This document shows, one piece after another, positions 14,136 to 23,817 of a stretch of 64,000 nt of DNA; position 1 is the stretch's first letter; every line of letters starts with the position of its first letter. The notes under the pieces are model-generated. The model saw nothing but the letters and a program-made list of their open reading frames with translations. It was not told the DNA's origin and did no database searches. Where the stretch lies: the NCBI RefSeq assembly GCF_003334405.1, contig NZ_QOWM01000007.1; one strand, 5' to 3'. Origin of the DNA: Escherichia coli (GTDB taxonomy: Bacteria; Pseudomonadota; Gammaproteobacteria; Enterobacterales; Enterobacteriaceae). The translations under genes were made by a program, and so were the position numbers.

Positions 14136-17456
<3,321 letters not shown>

Positions 17457-17622
17457 TTTAATATCCCTCCGGCGAATTATGCTCACAACCTGAACTTAAC
17501 AGAAAACAATCCGTTCAGGGATACGACGTTTGTATTTTAAGAATCTGACTGCCTGACCCGACGCATTTTACCTCTCCCTATATTCATGCGTCCGGGACAT
17601 AAACATAAATAAGGGCTATGAG

Positions 17623-19338
17623 ATGAATTCGTTACAAATCTTGAGTTTTGTCGGTTTTACGCTGCTGGTGGCGGTGATCACCTGGTGGAAGGTCCGCAAA
17701 ACAGATACCGGATCGCAACAAGGCTATTTTCTTGCCGGACGTTCACTAAAAGCGCCGGTTATTGCCGCTTCGTTAATGCTAACCAACCTTTCCACGGAAC
17801 AACTGGTCGGCCTTTCCGGGCAGGCCTACAAAAGCGGCATGTCGGTGATGGGCTGGGAAGTGACTTCAGCGGTGACGCTGATCTTCCTCGCGCTAATCTT
17901 TTTACCGCGCTATCTGAAGCGCGGCATTGCCACCATCCCCGATTTTCTGGAGGAACGTTATGATAAAACGACGCGTATTATCATCGACTTCTGCTTCCTA
18001 ATTGCCACCGGCGTCTGCTTTCTGCCGATTGTTCTCTACTCCGGCGCGTTGGCGCTCAACAGCCTGTTTCACGTCGGGGAATCGCTACAGATTTCTCACG
18101 GTGCGGCTATCTGGCTACTGGTAATTTTGCTTGGTCTGGCGGGAATTTTGTATGCGGTGATCGGCGGACTGCGCGCAATGGCAGTGGCGGACTCCATCAA
18201 CGGTATTGGGCTGGTTATCGGCGGGTTGATGGTGCCGGTATTTGGCCTGATCGCGATGGGCAAGGGCAGCTTTATGCAGGGCATTGAGCAACTCACCACC
18301 GTTCACGCCGAGAAATTAAACTCAATCGGTGGCCCGACCGATCCCTTGCCGATTGGCGCGGCATTTACCGGTTTGATTCTGGTGAACACCTTTTACTGGT
18401 GTACAAATCAGGGCATCGTGCAACGCACGCTGGCGTCAAAAAGCCTGGCGGAAGGGCAAAAGGGGGCGCTGTTAACGGCGGTGCTGAAAATGCTCGACCC
18501 GCTGGTACTGGTGCTGCCAGGGTTGATTGCGTTTCATCTGTATCAGGATTTACCGAAAGCCGACATGGCCTACCCGACGCTGGTCAATAACGTTCTGCCA
18601 GTGCCAATGGTGGGTTTCTTCGGCGCGGTGTTATTTGGTGCGGTGATCAGTACCTTCAACGGCTTTCTGAATAGCGCCAGTACGTTATTCAGTATGGGTA
18701 TTTACCGTCGCATCATTAACCAGAATGCCGAGCCGCAGCAGCTGGTCACCGTCGGGCGCAAATTTGGTTTCTTTATCGCTATCGTTTCGGTGCTGGTCGC
18801 GCCGTGGATCGCCAACGCGCCGCAGGGGCTGTATAGCTGGATGAAACAGCTCAACGGCATTTACAACGTGCCGCTGGTTACCATCATCATTATGGGCTTT
18901 TTCTTCCCGCGCATCCCGGCGCTGGCGGCAAAAGTAGCGATGGGGATTGGCATAATCAGCTACATCACCATCAACTATCTGGTGAAGTTCGACTTCCATT
19001 TCCTCTATGTGCTGGCCTGTACGTTCTGCATCAACGTGGTCGTGATGCTGGTGATCGGTTTTATCAAACCGCGCGCCACGCCGTTCACCTTCAAAGATGC
19101 GTTTGCGGTGGACATGAAACCGTGGAAAAACGTCAAGATCGCGTCAATTGGCATCCTGTTCGCGATGATTGGCGTCTATGCCGGGCTGGCTGAATTCGGC
19201 GGCTACGGTACGCGCTGGTTAGCGATGATCAGTTATTTCATTGCCGCCGTAGTGATTGTCTACCTGATTTTTGACAGCTGGCGGCATCGTCACGACCCAG
19301 CCGTAACCTTTACTCCCGACGGGAAGGATAGCCTATGA
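17623..19338 (+). CDS. yidK: Sodium:solute symporter (SSS family) YidK
   Basis: 571-aa polytopic membrane protein recognised as YidK. Confidence 0.9.
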   Translation: MNSLQILSFVGFTLLVAVITWWKVRKTDTGSQQGYFLAGRSLKAPVIAASLMLTNLSTEQLVGLSGQAYKSGMSVMGWEVTSAVTLIFLALIFLPRYLKRGIATIPDFLEERYDKTTRIIIDFCFLIATGVCFLPIVLYSGALALNSLFHVGESLQISHGAAIWLLVILLGLAGILYAVIGGLRAMAVADSINGIGLVIGGLMVPVFGLIAMGKGSFMQGIEQLTTVHAEKLNSIGGPTDPLPIGAAFTGLILVNTFYWCTNQGIVQRTLASKSLAEGQKGALLTAVLKMLDPLVLVLPGLIAFHLYQDLPKADMAYPTLVNNVLPVPMVGFFGAVLFGAVISTFNGFLNSASTLFSMGIYRRIINQNAEPQQLVTVGRKFGFFIAIVSVLVAPWIANAPQGLYSWMKQLNGIYNVPLVTIIIMGFFFPRIPALAAKVAMGIGIISYITINYLVKFDFHFLYVLACTFCINVVVMLVIGFIKPRATPFTFKDAFAVDMKPWKNVKIASIGILFAMIGVYAGLAEFGGYGTRWLAMISYFIAAVVIVYLIFDSWRHRHDPAVTFTPDGKDSL

Positions 19339-20828
19339 AACGCCCCAATTTTCTGTTCGTCATGACCGATACCCAGGCCACCAATATGGTCGGTTGCTAT
19401 AGCGGTAAACCGCTGAATACGCAAAATATTGATAGTCTGGCGGCGGAAGGTATTCGCTTTAATTCCGCCTACACCTGTTCACCGGTTTGTACGCCTGCAC
19501 GGGCCGGACTATTTACCGGTATCTACGCTAACCAGTCCGGCCCGTGGACCAACAACGTCGCGCCAGGCAAAAACATCTCCACTATGGGGCGCTACTTTAA
19601 GGATGCCGGCTATCACACCTGTTACATCGGCAAATGGCATCTCGACGGTCATGACTATTTCGGCACTGGCGAGTGTCCGCCGGAGTGGGACGCTGATTAC
19701 TGGTTCGATGGGGCGAACTATCTTAGCGAACTGACGGAAAAAGAGATTAGCCTGTGGCGCAATGGCCTAAACAGCGTCGAAGATTTACAGGCGAACCATA
19801 TCGACGAAACCTTCACCTGGGCGCATCGTATCAGCAATCGGGCGGTGGATTTTCTGCAACAGCCTGCGCGCGCAGACGAGCCTTTCCTGATGGTGGTTTC
19901 GTATGATGAGCCGCATCACCCGTTCACCTGTCCGGTGGAGTATTTAGAGAAATACGCTGATTTTTACTACGAGCTGGGCGAGAAAGCACAGGATGACCTG
20001 GCTAACAAACCGGAACATCACCGCTTATGGGCGCAGGCGATGCCATCGCCAGTCGGTGATGACGGGCTTTATCACCATCCGCTCTATTTTGCCTGTAATG
20101 ACTTTGTTGATGACCAAATCGGACGGGTCATCAATGCCTTAACGCCAGAGCAACGTGAAAATACGTGGGTTATTTATACCTCCGATCACGGCGAAATGAT
20201 GGGCGCACATAAGCTGATCAGTAAAGGGGCGGCGATGTATGACGACATCACCCGCATTCCGCTGATCATCCGTTCGCCGCAAGGGGAGCGGCGACAGGTC
20301 GATACGCCAGTCAGTCATATCGATTTACTGCCGACAATGATGGCGCTGGCAGATATTGAAAAACCAGAGATTCTGCCGGGGGAAAATATCCTTGCCGTGA
20401 AAGAGCCACGCGGCGTGATGGTGGAATTTAACCGCTACGAGATTGAGCATGACAGCTTTGGCGGTTTTATTCCGGTGCGTTGCTGGGTGACGGATGACTT
20501 TAAACTGGTACTCAACCTCTTCACCAGTGATGAACTTTACGATCGCCGTAATGACCCAAATGAAATGCATAACCTGATCGATGATATCCGTTTTGCAGAC
20601 GTTCGCAGCAAAATGCATGACGCCTTATTGGATTACATGGACAAAATTCGCGATCCGTTCCGCAGTTACCAATGGAGTCTGCGTCCGTGGCGTAAAGATG
20701 CACGGCCGCGCTGGATGGGGGCGTTTCGTCCACGTCCACAAGATGGCTATTCGCCAGTTGTACGCGACTATGACACCGGCCTACCGACACAAGGGGTGAA
20801 GGTGGAGGAGAAAAAACAGAAGTTCTGA
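19335..20828 (+). CDS. yidJ: Putative sulfatase YidJ
   Basis: 497-aa ORF; N-terminal sulfatase signature around CSPVCTPARAGLFTG (the C-x-P-x-R formylglycine motif); ATGA overlap with yidK. Confidence 0.9.
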   Translation: MKRPNFLFVMTDTQATNMVGCYSGKPLNTQNIDSLAAEGIRFNSAYTCSPVCTPARAGLFTGIYANQSGPWTNNVAPGKNISTMGRYFKDAGYHTCYIGKWHLDGHDYFGTGECPPEWDADYWFDGANYLSELTEKEISLWRNGLNSVEDLQANHIDETFTWAHRISNRAVDFLQQPARADEPFLMVVSYDEPHHPFTCPVEYLEKYADFYYELGEKAQDDLANKPEHHRLWAQAMPSPVGDDGLYHHPLYFACNDFVDDQIGRVINALTPEQRENTWVIYTSDHGEMMGAHKLISKGAAMYDDITRIPLIIRSPQGERRQVDTPVSHIDLLPTMMALADIEKPEILPGENILAVKEPRGVMVEFNRYEIEHDSFGGFIPVRCWVTDDFKLVLNLFTSDELYDRRNDPNEMHNLIDDIRFADVRSKMHDALLDYMDKIRDPFRSYQWSLRPWRKDARPRWMGAFRPRPQDGYSPVVRDYDTGLPTQGVKVEEKKQKF

Positions 20829-20874
20829 CGATAATGCCCGCTGATGATCACCCGGCGGGCATTATTCAGGCTGC

Positions 20875-21324
20875 TTAAACCAGTGAACCGCCGGTCAGGA
20901 AGGAAAAGATAAGGAATATCAGCAAAATGCTGCACACGATGCCGATACCAAAAAGCAAGGTATGGAAAGCCAGCGTCCCGCCGCCAAAAACCAGCGCGCC
21001 GCGAATGCCCCAGCGATTTTCCTTACGCATACCGCCAATAAATGCGCAAAGTAGCGCAGCAATGGCCAGTGCGATACCGCTTTGATTGAGGATTTTATCG
21101 ACATCTACGTCCTCTTTTTTCTCCACGGTGGTAATTTTTTCGCCTTTTATTCCGGCGAGAAGACCTCTTTTAATTTCAGCCGTTTTGTCCGCCACGATGC
21201 TTTCAAACGTTGGCGGTGGTGCGGAGAAAGGGCCGAATGAAAAGTGGATAATCCCCATCATTAAAGCGATGGCACCGAACAGCATGCCCAATGAACTGAT
21301 TTTATTTTGAGCTATGATACCCAT
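20875..21324 (-). CDS. yidI: Small inner-membrane protein YidI
   Basis: ORF 20875..21432 trimmed to MGIIAQNKISSLGMLFGAIALMMG... (149 aa). Confidence 0.8.
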   Translation of the reverse strand: MGIIAQNKISSLGMLFGAIALMMGIIHFSFGPFSAPPPTFESIVADKTAEIKRGLLAGIKGEKITTVEKKEDVDVDKILNQSGIALAIAALLCAFIGGMRKENRWGIRGALVFGGGTLAFHTLLFGIGIVCSILLIFLIFSFLTGGSLV

Positions 21325-21431
21325 CTGACCTCCTTGTAGCGGATGGCAAAAGCATATCAGGAAACGGGCGGACGAAATTCTTAAAAAAACCGCTAAAGGT
21401 AGAGCGTTAGTGAAATTGCAAAGGAGCAACA

Positions 21432-21779
21432 ATGAAAATTTCCCGCCTCGGAGAAGCGCCTGATTACCGCTTCTCGCTGGCTAATGAGCGTACTTTTCTG
21501 GCGTGGATCCGTACTGCACTAGGATTTCTGGCGGCGGGGGTTGGGCTTGATCAACTTGCGCCAGATTTCGCCACGCCCGTCATTCGCGAACTGCTGGCGT
21601 TGTTGTTGTGTCTGTTTTCCGGCGGGTTAGCGATGTATGGCTACTTGCGCTGGTTACGCAATGAAAAAGCGATGCGTCTGAAAGAGGACCTGCCCTACAC
21701 CAACAGCTTATTAATCATTAGCTTAATATTGATGGTCGTGGCGGTGATCGTTATGGGACTGGTGTTGTATGCCGGATAG
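21432..21779 (+). CDS. yidH: DUF202 inner-membrane protein YidH
   Basis: 115-aa ORF recognised as YidH. Confidence 0.85.
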   Translation: MKISRLGEAPDYRFSLANERTFLAWIRTALGFLAAGVGLDQLAPDFATPVIRELLALLLCLFSGGLAMYGYLRWLRNEKAMRLKEDLPYTNSLLIISLILMVVAVIVMGLVLYAG

Positions 21780-22131
21780 CCGCAAAGCCAGACGCATTGC
21801 CGACCCAGGACTGCAGCCGGAGCGCACATCACTGGCGTGGTTTCGTACCATGCTGGGCTACGGCGCGTTGATGGCGTTGGCTATCAAACACAACTGGCAC
21901 CAGGCGGGCATGTTATTCTGGATTTCGATTGGCATTCTCGCCATCGTGGCGCTGATCCTCTGGCACTACACCCGTAATCGCAATTTAATGGATGTCACGA
22001 ATAGCGATTTTTCCCAATTTCACGTAGTCCGTGACAAATTTTTGATCTCCCTCGCGGTGTTATCTCTCGCAATACTGTTTGCTGTAACGCATATACATCA
22101 ACTTATCGTATTTATTGAGAGAGTCGCATGA
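21769..22131 (+). CDS. yidG: DUF202 inner-membrane protein YidG
   Basis: 120-aa ORF; overlaps the yidH 3' end by 11 bp. Confidence 0.85.
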   Translation: MPDSRKARRIADPGLQPERTSLAWFRTMLGYGALMALAIKHNWHQAGMLFWISIGILAIVALILWHYTRNRNLMDVTNSDFSQFHVVRDKFLISLAVLSLAILFAVTHIHQLIVFIERVA

Positions 22132-22625
22132 CAGGAAGTCAGGTCATTGATGCTGAAGAGGACAGGCATAAACTGGTTGTAGAGTACAAGGATGCTCTGC
22201 AACCTGCCGATTTTTATCACAATTTCAAACAGCGGGGCATCCGCTCCGTACAGCTCATTCCCTATCTTGAATTTGATGACCGGGGCGATCTGACGGCCGC
22301 TTCGGTGACAGCAGAGCTGTGGGGGAAATTTTTAATTGCCCTGTTCGAGTGTTGGGTGCGGGCAGATATCAGTCGTATCTCGATTGAGCTTTTTGACGCC
22401 ACCTTACAAAAATGGTGTGGCAGCGAAAACCCGCAACCGCGCTGTGACTGCCAGGCGTGCGACTGGCATCGCCTGTGCCCGCACGCTCGGCAGGAGACGC
22501 CAGACAGCGTGCTTTGTGCGGGCTATCAGGCGTTTTATTCTTACTCCGCACCGCATATGCGGGTGATGCGTGATCTGATAAAGCAGCATCGTTCTCCCAT
22601 GGAGCTGATGACGATGCTGCGGTGA
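22128..22625 (+). CDS. yidF: YidF, Cys-rich protein resembling the C-terminal auxiliary-cluster domain of anaerobic sulfatase-maturating enzymes
   Basis: 165-aa ORF with CDCQACDWHRLC and a further Cys pair; no CxxxCxxC radical-SAM motif; ATGA overlap with yidG. Confidence 0.8.
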   Translation: MTGSQVIDAEEDRHKLVVEYKDALQPADFYHNFKQRGIRSVQLIPYLEFDDRGDLTAASVTAELWGKFLIALFECWVRADISRISIELFDATLQKWCGSENPQPRCDCQACDWHRLCPHARQETPDSVLCAGYQAFYSYSAPHMRVMRDLIKQHRSPMELMTMLR

Positions 22626-22632
22626 CGTGCGC

Positions 22633-23817
22633 TTAAACGGGCTGCCCCTGATGCGACATCCGCGTCGCCAGCGGCAGCCAGCACAGCACGATCAACAATC
22701 CCATTAAGGTCATCAACAACCCCAGGCTGCCCTGACCGGTTTGCGGCAACATCGCAGAGAGCGACGCCAGCACGCCGGAACCAATGTTTTGCAGACCGCC
22801 GACCAGCGCGCCAGCCGTGCCCGCCAGGAAGGGGAACGGCTCCATCGCGCCGCTGGTCGCCAGCGGAAACAGCATCCCGGCACCGAAAAAGAACAGCGCG
22901 GCGGGAACGAGCAGCGTCCAGACATTCATCACGCCAAACCAGTCGGGGATCCACATCAGCAAGCCAGCCAGCAGGCAGCAGATAACCGACTGCCACATTA
23001 ACGTGGAGAAGCGTTTATTGGGACGTCCGGCAAACCATGCGCCAAAAAACGCTGCCGGAATCGGCAGAATAAACAAAATACTGACCGTCATACTGCTCAG
23101 CCCTAACACCGCGCCCATCAGCACGCCGGAGCAGGCTTCAAAGGCGGCAATCCCGGCCAGACCGCCAATCAGCATCAGCAAATAACAGTTAAAACCGCTG
23201 TTACCGAAAAGCGTTTTATAACTGGTAAGCAGGCGCGTGCGCGGTGCATCGACCGGACGCGTTTCCGGCATCCAGCGGGCCATACTGAAGGTCACACCAG
23301 CACAAAGAACCAACAAAAAGAGATAACAGGCGCGCCAGTTCCACATCGTATCCAGCAGACCGCCGATTAGCGGTGCGAGCAACGGACTGACGAGAATCCC
23401 CATGTTTAACAGGCTGTTAGCATGGCGCAACTGTGTCCGTTCATATAAATCTCGCGGTAAAGTACGCGCCATTACGCCGCCAACGCCGGTGCCCATCCCC
23501 TGCATCGCGCTGGCGGCAATCAACACCGTCAAACTGGAGGTCGTGACCGCGACCAGCGTTGCCAGCATAAAAATGGACATTCCGACGAGGATCACCGGTC
23601 GGCGGCCCACGCGGTCGGAAATCGGGCCATAAAACAGCTGTGAGACACCGTAAGTCAGCAGATAAGCGCCCATTACGCTCTGCACCGCCCCTTCACGGAC
23701 GTTGAGATCGCGCGCCATATCGGCAATAGCTGGAATATAAATGGTTTGCGCCATCTGACCGACGGCCACGAGTAATACCAACATCAATAACAAATTGACG
23801 TTTCTTTGCCTTTTCAT
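22633..23817 (-). CDS. emrD: Multidrug efflux MFS transporter EmrD
   Basis: ORF 22633..23823 trimmed to MKRQRNVNLLLMLVLLVAVGQMAQ... (394 aa). Confidence 0.9.
   Translation of the reverse strand: MKRQRNVNLLLMLVLLVAVGQMAQTIYIPAIADMARDLNVREGAVQSVMGAYLLTYGVSQLFYGPISDRVGRRPVILVGMSIFMLATLVAVTTSSLTVLIAASAMQGMGTGVGGVMARTLPRDLYERTQLRHANSLLNMGILVSPLLAPLIGGLLDTMWNWRACYLFLLVLCAGVTFSMARWMPETRPVDAPRTRLLTSYKTLFGNSGFNCYLLMLIGGLAGIAAFEACSGVLMGAVLGLSSMTVSILFILPIPAAFFGAWFAGRPNKRFSTLMWQSVICCLLAGLLMWIPDWFGVMNVWTLLVPAALFFFGAGMLFPLATSGAMEPFPFLAGTAGALVGGLQNIGSGVLASLSAMLPQTGQGSLGLLMTLMGLLIVLCWLPLATRMSHQGQPV

Follow-up and report, generated by a model that had tools for sequence, protein, structure and literature searches.

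The question raised by the yid locus of Escherichia coli is what yidF, a gene lying close to a putative sulfatase gene, encodes and why it has been retained. We analysed this locus in a stretch of 64,000 nucleotides (nt) of E. coli DNA (contig NZ_QOWM01000007.1 of the RefSeq assembly GCF_003334405.1), hereafter the window. A first-pass annotation made from the letters of the window had joined the symporter gene yidK, the sulfatase gene yidJ, the regulatory gene yidL, the DUF202 membrane protein genes yidH and yidG, and yidF into one cryptic sulfatase-like cluster. Comparative analysis indicates that YidF, a protein of 165 amino acids (aa), is an internally deleted remnant of the anaerobic sulfatase-maturating enzyme (anSME) that belonged to this locus. 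As a whole, the data are best explained, with a probability which we put at roughly 0.6, by a gutted anSME remnant kept by selection within an ancestral sulfatase unit together with YidH and YidG.

The ancestral state was approached using a survey of one genome per bacterial species, in which a DNA-level scan gave 77 loci that were compared by tblastn and extraction of open reading frames (ORFs). The yidG–yidF junction, to which the first-pass annotation had pointed as the place where an intact homologue might be found, does hold one in many enterobacteria: the gene 3' of yidH-yidG is an anSME of 370-374 aa in Citrobacter werkmanii, C. braakii, C. sedlakii, Kluyvera, Atlantibacter, Trabulsiella, Pluralibacter, Kosakonia, one Leclercia species, and others. 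Its start codon is likewise the ATG that overlaps the yidG stop, and its product begins MTGCQVMAKPASSRCNLxCRYC, the radical S-adenosylmethionine (SAM) motif CxxxCxxC being residues 15-22. Two of these full-length neighbours exceed the TIGR03942 cut-off (484 and 458 bits vs 349), and the C. werkmanii enzyme, the one compared with solved structures, matches anSMEcpe of Clostridium perfringens (4K36) over the whole length with E 9e-69. In most genomes with a full-length anSME, yidL and yidK-yidJ lie directly upstream without yidI, and the complete arrangement (yidL, yidK-yidJ-yidH-yidG, then full-length anSME) occurs in 20 of the 61 species-level loci. This recurrent order shows the ancestral unit, yidL with yidK-yidJ-yidH-yidG-anSME, predicted to serve the use of a sulfated sugar, and the E. 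coli region is a rearranged copy of this enterobacterial unit. Its anSME is, by all predicted features, a radical-SAM/SPASM maturase making the formylglycine of YidJ.

YidF retains a limited part of this enzyme. It scores 75 bits against TIGR03942 (cut-off 349.45), with matches only to model positions 160-245 and a second stretch, and a Pfam scan found no domain in it, PF13186 (SPASM) being without match. No CxxxCxxC is present in its sequence or alignments; its cysteines are C75, C97, C106, C108, C111, C117, and C130. At the same time, residues 127-370 of the full-length C. werkmanii enzyme match yidF in tblastn with E 4e-35, and homologues of similar length (165-178 aa, 42-52% identity) exist in Citrobacter, Klebsiella, Leclercia, Superficieibacter, and Silvania. 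The alignments reveal two in-frame deletions. The first removed approximately residues 9-150, and with them CxxxCxxC and the barrel half that binds SAM; the second removed about 55 residues from the first half of SPASM together with three ligands of auxiliary cluster I. Two clean in-frame gaps of the same kind separate short and full-length Leclercia alleles occupying the same chromosomal site in a DNA alignment.

The fate of the two auxiliary clusters is different. In anSMEcpe numbering, the cluster I ligands C255, C261, and C276 are deleted and C330 is absent in Escherichia, while all four cluster II ligands (C317/C320/C326/C348) are kept as C108/C111/C117/C130 of YidF. Across 74 sequences C108, C111, and C130 do not vary, and the conservation of C117 is at least 90%. 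The first-pass annotation was thus right in denying YidF a radical-SAM core, which the profile search bears out; its statement that YidF carries the cysteine motifs of the anSME C terminus holds for cluster II, and the disappearance of cluster I had escaped it. It had also placed the two DUF202 genes in the position of the lost core, which has to be corrected: yidH-yidG precede the full-length orthologues as well, with an identical start overlap, so the core was lost by internal in-frame deletion and was not replaced. Of the two readings that it offered, the decayed maturase is supported and the split protein is not.

Besides the cluster II cysteines, the final third of the barrel and the C-terminal helices have been preserved in YidF, and the gene still begins with the ancestral start codon that is coupled to yidG. 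An AlphaFold2 model built from 74 sequences has a pLDDT of 83 and a pTM of 0.80, with high pLDDT in the tail helices, and a Foldseek search with this model returned the anSMEcpe structures 4K36-4K39 as sole significant matches (E 1e-5, TMq 0.63). Common descent and a common fold with the C-terminal half of anSME are thereby indicated by tblastn, Foldseek, the locus, and the start codon, while the lack of CxxxCxxC, the low equivalog score, and the incomplete SPASM ligand sets place YidF outside the family. In comparison with anSMEcpe (PDB 4K36-4K39; TIGR03942), YidF is homologous to the C-terminal half, where the cluster II cysteines align, but its barrel is without the SAM half and its SPASM domain without the first half, the length being 165 aa instead of about 370; it would neither work as a maturase nor resemble one in its action. 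We consider with high confidence that YidF is incapable of radical-SAM chemistry and has no maturase activity, in which case YidJ of E. coli would need another maturation route. The RefSeq product name of YidF, “radical SAM protein”, is misleading since no radical-SAM site is present, and YidF should not be counted as a maturase when one asks how E. coli activates its three sulfatases.

Truncation of this gene has probably occurred more than once. In a neighbour-joining tree of 156 shared columns the short forms were not recovered as one clade, and those of Leclercia and Silvania grouped with the full-length Leclercia gene (89% bootstrap). When the two halves of the protein were treated separately, monophyly of all short forms received 11% and 0% bootstrap, and a single origin is not supported by these values; for both halves, the short forms of Leclercia and Kluyvera sichuanensis are closest to full-length genes of their own genera. 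The N-terminal deletion junctions vary between clades, and intermediates exist. C. amalonaticus has a 192-aa form in which CxxxCxxC survives, another form has 213 aa, and a Kosakonia gene has lost only 23 aa of SPASM; in a further gene, of 360 aa, CxxxCxxC is broken and 14 aa of SPASM are missing. From these comparisons we conclude that truncation happened at least two times, probably three or more. Each time the catalytic core and the auxiliary-cluster-I half were lost in frame and the same module was spared.

The preserved module is under purifying selection. The ratio of nonsynonymous to synonymous substitution rates (dN/dS), given here as pairwise Nei-Gojobori and not codon-model estimates, is 0.16 for YidF in Escherichia (dS 0.71), 0.16 in short-form Citrobacter, and 0.21-0.33 in the other short-form groups (0.16-0.33 over five groups), as compared to 0.08-0.12 in full-length orthologues. 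Relaxation is about 2.5-fold in the barrel remnant, while in the tail (residues 131-165) dN is 0.19 in short forms vs 0.23 in full-length ones. Because synonymous sites of the tail are almost saturated, it is the protein sequence that is constrained, and we rejected the possibility that an RNA or DNA element embedded there explains the conservation of the tail. Most short forms are intact ORFs beginning at the ATG that overlaps yidG, as found by a DNA-level scan able to detect broken copies. YidF has neither the dN/dS near 1 nor the disrupted frame of a pseudogene, and we judge that it is not a neutral one. With moderate confidence, YidF can be regarded as a working protein, the essential part of which would be the C-terminal helices.

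The loss of the maturase correlates with the loss of its presumed substrate. Among the 61 species-level loci, full-length anSME occurs with yidJ in 20 and without it in 9, and degraded forms occur with yidJ in 8 and without it in 24 (odds ratio 6.7, Fisher p = 8e-4, uncorrected for phylogeny). This correlation fits the maturase having served YidJ and, together with the conserved gene order, upholds the earlier view of yidL, yidKJ, and yidF as one sulfatase unit, for the ancestral state. In Citrobacter and Leclercia without yidJKL, yidH-yidG-yidF are found between yidE and dsdA. Escherichia belongs to the minority in which a strongly constrained yidJ (dN/dS 0.045 within the genus) stands beside a gutted maturase. 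There are strong grounds to expect that E. coli YidJ is matured by another system, either AslB/YdeM, which are complete anSME-type maturases of E. coli, or a putative aerobic pathway. Reportedly, to judge by the title of a 2007 paper by Benjdia et al. that is cited in PMC6189696, aslB and ydeM mutants point to a third maturation system. The aslA-aslB and ydeN-ydeM pairs of E. coli resemble the yid locus in having a sulfatase gene near an anSME-type gene, but the yid sulfatase is predicted to be cytoplasmic, an importer and a DUF202 pair belong to its unit, and its maturase copy is gutted.

Separate loci of the survey illustrate other combinations. In Enterobacter sp. CC120223-11 (L047, 5711-7642) the last 18 codons of yidJ are left and the downstream anSME is full length with CxxxCxxC intact, which is the reverse of the E. 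coli situation. E. albertii NBRC 107761 (L021) has lost yidK and yidJ; only the 3' end of yidL and a part of yidI survive, and yidF is interrupted (a 95-aa ORF and a second matching piece); other E. albertii have an intact 165-aa YidF (P0010). In Enterobacter kobei (L084, 4001-4708) yidH-yidG end 8 nt before a convergent dsdA-like gene and no trace of yidF is seen, which shows an end state of maturase loss where YidHG can stand alone.

The enzyme and the importer of the unit are of recognisable kinds. YidJ has the catalytic motif expected of the sulfatase that the first-pass annotation had called: C52-T-P-A-R aligns with S/C-x-P-x-R of solved sulfatases, and PF00884 is found on its orthologues. 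It aligns end to end with solved S1 carbohydrate sulfatases (E 1e-39 to 3e-46), the alignment starting at query residue 2, which corresponds to chain residue ~25 of these enzymes, and therefore YidJ has no signal peptide. Since its scores are below both the arylsulfatase and the choline-sulfatase equivalog cut-offs of NCBIfam, the subfamily assignment stops at S1. YidJ thus shares the fold alignment and C-x-P-x-R with the S1 sulfatases of Bacteroides and marine bacteria (9IHK, S1_30; 6PT4, iota-carrageenan 2S; 5G2V, GlcNAc-6-sulfatase) but differs in lacking a signal peptide and in being encoded with an importer of the SGLT type. For this reason YidJ is expected to be a cytoplasmic enzyme whose substrate is a small imported molecule. 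YidK, the probable importer of the sulfated substrate, exceeds the NCBIfam cut-offs of NF007790 (857 bits vs 401) and TIGR00813 (417 bits vs 184), its best solved relatives being vSGLT and human SGLT1/2 (E 1e-53 to 1e-40). The C-terminal helix-turn-helix region of YidL gives partial matches to AraC/RhaS/RhaR models, and yidL adjoins yidK-yidJ in other genera too. The position of yidI between yidJ and yidH is limited to Escherichia, S. enterica arizonae, and a few Citrobacter; in the genera without it the yidJ-yidH gap is ~60-100 nt. Its product has no NCBIfam match, and yidI, interrupting the ancestral yidKJ-yidHG-anSME array, is probably not part of the system.

Within the set, conservation is highest for YidH and YidG. 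PF02656 is found on orthologues of both, and both contain the motif (A/P)xERTxLxWxRT, which is 96-99% conserved; R13, R20, and R27 of YidH are each conserved in 99% of 112 representatives. dN/dS is 0.01-0.05 for yidH and 0.05-0.09 for yidG in Escherichia/Citrobacter (up to 0.32 in Leclercia/Silvania), and the pair is kept with identical overlaps in Citrobacter and Leclercia. The best 120 close homologues of YidH were all from Enterobacteriaceae and thus uninformative on distant context. A YidH search of 1.8 billion representative proteins returned 1,773 representatives at E up to 0.001, among which five gene contexts were examined at 46-54% YidH identity. A sulfatase and/or anSME gene lies beside the YidH-like gene in four of the five, and DUF202 genes are paired in three of those four.

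The arrangement of these distant loci is variable. One of them (L087) contains an AraC-type gene, then an SSS importer, a sulfatase, and two DUF202 genes in a row; in another (L088) the anSME stop overlaps the first of two DUF202 genes; a third (L090) has the order phosphotransferase system (PTS) importer, sulfatase, GntR, DUF202, DUF202, full-length anSME. The DUF202-linked anSME of L090 (6690-7982) is 430 aa long and has at its C-terminal end a SEC-C-type CPCGSGKKYKKCCG motif, which is an unusual extension in this family. L091 (1-11837) looks like a sulfated-galactan utilisation locus with an apparently single DUF202 gene; within 12 kb it also encodes a major facilitator superfamily (MFS) transporter for import, a sulfatase that has no signal peptide, GH127 and two GH16, a full-length anSME, and an exporter of the TauE family. 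In the remaining context (L089), a 1.4-kb contig, the DUF202 gene is preceded by a ROK-family gene alone and followed by a cut ORF. Sulfatases of the distant DUF202 loci have no signal peptides and carry CTPAR, CMPAR, or CMPSR, and start and stop codons of DUF202 and anSME genes overlap or abut in three arrangements. Bacteroidales anSME loci, which presumably serve exported sulfatases, have no DUF202 gene within 7 kb; therefore, the association with DUF202 holds for a particular type of locus rather than for anSMEs as a whole. From its distribution, the DUF202 pair looks like a regular component of systems for import and cytoplasmic desulfation.

A clue to the action of this pair may come from yeast. 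The best match of YidH among solved sequences is Vtc1 (residues 14-109, E 0.0025-0.005). The polyphosphate channel of the yeast VTC complex is built from the first helix of each of five DUF202-type subunits; it is lined by K24 and constricted by R31 of Vtc1 (PMC9911596). R13 and R20 of YidH align with these two pore residues, and YidH shares with Vtc1 (PDB 7YTJ, 8I6V) the three-helix alignment and FxxANERTFLxW; in comparison with VTC, YidH and YidG are stand-alone subunits of 115-120 aa, a pair without polymerase or SPX domains. Because of this weak homology and the gene context, YidH/YidG might form an arginine-lined oxyanion pore with sulfate as a candidate cargo. A different cargo was suggested by an overexpression clone of YidH that scored in a D-alanine export screen; the authors' transport (uptake) assay showed no effect (PMC10299036), and we rejected D-alanine export as a lead for this reason.

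We suppose the following course of events. In the ancestral unit YidK would import a sulfated sugar, which YidJ would desulfate in the cytoplasm after anSME had made its formylglycine. In Escherichia, yidI lies between yidJ and yidH, and the maturase gene has been cut by two in-frame internal deletions, so that YidJ would be matured by AslB/YdeM or by the aerobic pathway mentioned above. With low confidence, the residual role of YidF would be non-catalytic and tied to YidH/YidG, possibly that of an Fe-S subunit with a single [4Fe-4S] cluster; an association with membrane partners is supported indirectly, by purifying selection, by persistence with yidHG in the absence of yidJ, and by the DUF202-anSME linkage. 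Likewise with low confidence, YidH/YidG could be a Vtc1-like pore letting the sulfate released in the cytoplasm leave the cell. The broader proposal is that this pair is a bacterial counterpart of the Vtc1 channel exporting sulfate, that the C-terminal module of anSME docks to it, and that YidF is kept as a non-catalytic, possibly redox-sensing, pore subunit; we regard it as unlikely in this full form.

Several observations weigh against our interpretation. YidF evolves 3-10 times faster than its neighbours: identity among Escherichia species is 82-86% for YidF, 91-100% for YidG, and 97-99% for YidH, and between E. coli and Citrobacter it is ~50%, 80-84%, and 91-97%, respectively. The cysteine loop is the most relaxed region of YidF apart from the cysteines themselves (dN/dS ~0.3, the pairwise type of estimate being itself a weak point), the AlphaFold2 model is uncertain around it, and one Citrobacter clade has Tyr at the C117 equivalent, a neighbouring Cys being retained there. 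The deep nodes of the tree (156 columns, neighbour joining) are poorly supported, which makes the number of truncations uncertain. In the L080 and L035 alleles of Leclercia the last ~180 nt and the downstream flank are ~95% identical by eye, the value for the whole alignment being 77.6%, and this suggests recent recombination or very recent common ancestry. Disrupted copies, few in number, are found in E. albertii (L021) and L. adecarboxylata (L064), to which two frameshifted long forms are added, and Enterobacter kobei has yidH-yidG and no yidF; YidF is therefore dispensable in some backgrounds at least. Finally, the Vtc1 similarity behind the sulfate-pore idea is weak (E ~0.003), and the YidG search of solved structures gave no Vtc chain and nothing meaningful.

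A part of these data would be expected if YidF were a dead relic, left by a maturase gene that decays once unneeded and has an ORF surviving by chance or for a short time. Such a view agrees with the loss of every catalytic element, the rapid evolution of YidF relative to all its neighbours, the graded decay elsewhere (the broken CxxxCxxC of RIT691, the 23-aa SPASM deletion of Kosakonia oryziphila), the frameshifted copies in L036, L052, L021, and L064, the complete absence of yidF in Enterobacter kobei, and the prevalence of degraded forms where yidJ is gone. It is hard to reconcile with a dN/dS of 0.16 at dS from 0.7 to >1 within Escherichia and Citrobacter, or with a frame of 165-178 aa maintained among Escherichia, Citrobacter, and Salmonella arizonae at ~50% identity. 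A relic would hardly have a tail constrained as in the active enzymes, two large deletions per lineage both in frame, or the four cluster II cysteines kept while the orphaned fourth ligand of cluster I was lost in several lineages, and we consider this explanation improbable. Much more improbable is that YidF represents one half of a split maturase which acts in trans on YidJ with AslB, YdeM, or another partner. The fold match indicates that YidF retains the barrel/SPASM part contacting the substrate in anSMEcpe-like enzymes, its cluster II ligand set is complete, and a constrained yidJ lies beside it in E. coli. However, searches of the 64-kb window for an N-terminal radical-SAM half or a first SPASM half gave only noise (E >0.1), the split-gene idea being dropped on this evidence; the full-length orthologues show that the ancestor was a single polypeptide, the deleted auxiliary cluster I is the one situated between the active site and auxiliary cluster II, most genomes with short forms have no yidJ, and AslB and YdeM are complete enzymes themselves.

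The place of the DUF202 pair may also be read differently, as a merely historical adjacency of yidHG to sulfatase and maturase genes, yidHG having a housekeeping membrane function with yidF riding along. In many genera yidHG persist alone or beside unrelated genes (yidE, dsdA), their conservation far exceeds the retention of the neighbouring sulfatase genes, only the ROK-family gene is seen upstream in the short L089 contig, and the YidH clone of the D-alanine screen, unconfirmed by its authors' transport assay (PMC10299036), hints at a function of another sort. Coincidence of this kind would not readily produce sulfatase and/or anSME genes in four of five contexts that differ in importers, regulators, and gene order, nor the overlap or abutment of DUF202 and anSME start and stop codons in three arrangements, and the lack of DUF202 at Bacteroidales anSME loci makes the link specific to a locus type. 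We hold a purely historical adjacency to be quite unlikely, and a selected anSME remnant associated with YidH and YidG remains our preferred explanation.

The layout of the cluster is summarised in Table 1. The window is 100% identical to E. coli chromosomes; the 7.4 kb surrounding the locus are identical in many complete E. coli chromosomes, and at least 80% of this region is present in one place in 5107 of 5426 genomes. The RefSeq gene order, yidL(-), yidK, yidJ, yidI(-), yidH, yidG, yidF, emrD(-), is concordant with the six-frame ORF list. The overlap of yidK and yidJ and the divergent AraC-type yidL had been described correctly by the first-pass annotation, the yidK stop and the yidJ start having ATGA in common (19335-19338). 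The same is true for the overlapping frames of yidH, yidG, and yidF, which share 11 nt in the first case and ATGA (22128-22131) in the second. Its placement of yidF two genes downstream was inaccurate, as three genes separate yidJ from yidF, among them yidI on the opposite strand, which had gone unmentioned.

Table 1. Coordinates of the yid genes and of the retained and lost parts of yidF in the window.
Feature	Coordinates	Strand	Description
yidL	16563..17456	-	AraC-family regulator, divergent from yidK; ORF and RefSeq coordinates
yidK	17623..19338	+	Sodium:solute symporter, sugar (SGLT) type
yidJ	19335..20828	+	Predicted cytoplasmic Cys-type (formylglycine) S1 sulfatase
C52-T-P-A-R codons	19488..19502	+	Sulfatase motif with the Cys to be converted to formylglycine; direct sequence reading
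yidI	20875..21324	-	Small membrane protein, 149 aa; RefSeq annotation
yidH	21432..21779	+	DUF202 three-helix membrane protein, Vtc1-like, conserved R13/R20/R27
yidG	21769..22131	+	Second DUF202 membrane protein; PF02656 on orthologues
yidF	22128..22625	+	Internally deleted anSME remnant, 165 aa
yidF retained 5' end, MTGSQVID	22128..22151	+	Equivalent to the first 8 codons of full-length anSME (MTGCQVMA); junction 1 is next
yidF deletion junction 2 region	22416..22448	+	About 55 codons of the SPASM first half gone (alignments, Cys table)
yidF codons C108, C111, C117, C130	22449..22517	+	Equivalents of auxiliary-cluster-II ligands
yidF C-terminal tail, residues 131-165, ending APHMRVMRDLIKQHRSPMELMTMLR	22518..22622	+	Most constrained part of YidF

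A scan of 16400-22800 for promoter and terminator consensus sequences found promoter-like sites to be rarer than in shuffles and gave nothing usable. An 8-bp inverted repeat (ATGCCCGC...GCGGGCAT) occupies 20834-20862 between the convergent ends of yidJ and yidI, where the terminator scan made no call. On the other side of yidL, the gene after the PTS EIICB gene in the glv operon is split into the overlapping ORFs 15752-16390 and 16354-16566 and is called “frameshifted” in RefSeq. At this position an intact GH4 6-phospho-alpha-glucosidase of 440 aa is encoded in Superficieibacter and Enterobacter kobei, so the split glv gene adjoining the yid cluster (15752-16566) is a real pseudogene. After the cluster (22633-23817 and beyond), emrD, ysdE, tisB, ivbL-ilvBN, and uhpABC follow, an arrangement shared with E. 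coli K-12; dsdCXA and other genes are inserted between yidF and emrD in Citrobacter and Leclercia.

The individual kinds of genes involved are already known: the E. coli y-genes have long been annotated, and sulfatases, SSS transporters, AraC regulators, DUF202 proteins, and anSMEs are familiar families. In the searchable literature we found nothing specific on yidF, no description of YidF as an internally deleted locus-specific anSME or of recurrent selected stubs, and no description of the DUF202 pair as a conserved partner of cytoplasmic sulfatases with Vtc1-like pore residues. yidJ appears there in gene lists only, for example, among genes enriched in gut strains of Escherichia clade II (PMC7716201).

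The yidF gene represents a natural experiment in domain loss, in which in-frame deletions repeatedly reduced a radical-SAM/SPASM enzyme to one and the same C-terminal module, still under selection. Such a repeated reduction suggests that the C-terminal module of anSME has a function of its own. The DUF202/YidH family, for which no function has been known, gains a context in cytoplasmic desulfation, and the Vtc1 homology suggests a mechanism. If the pore proposal is true, YidH/YidG would be an unrecognised third component of the systems that combine an importer, a cytoplasmic sulfatase, and an anSME, and the lineages losing the maturase would repeatedly keep its docking module, represented in E. 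coli by YidF with a single Fe-S cluster of the auxiliary II type.

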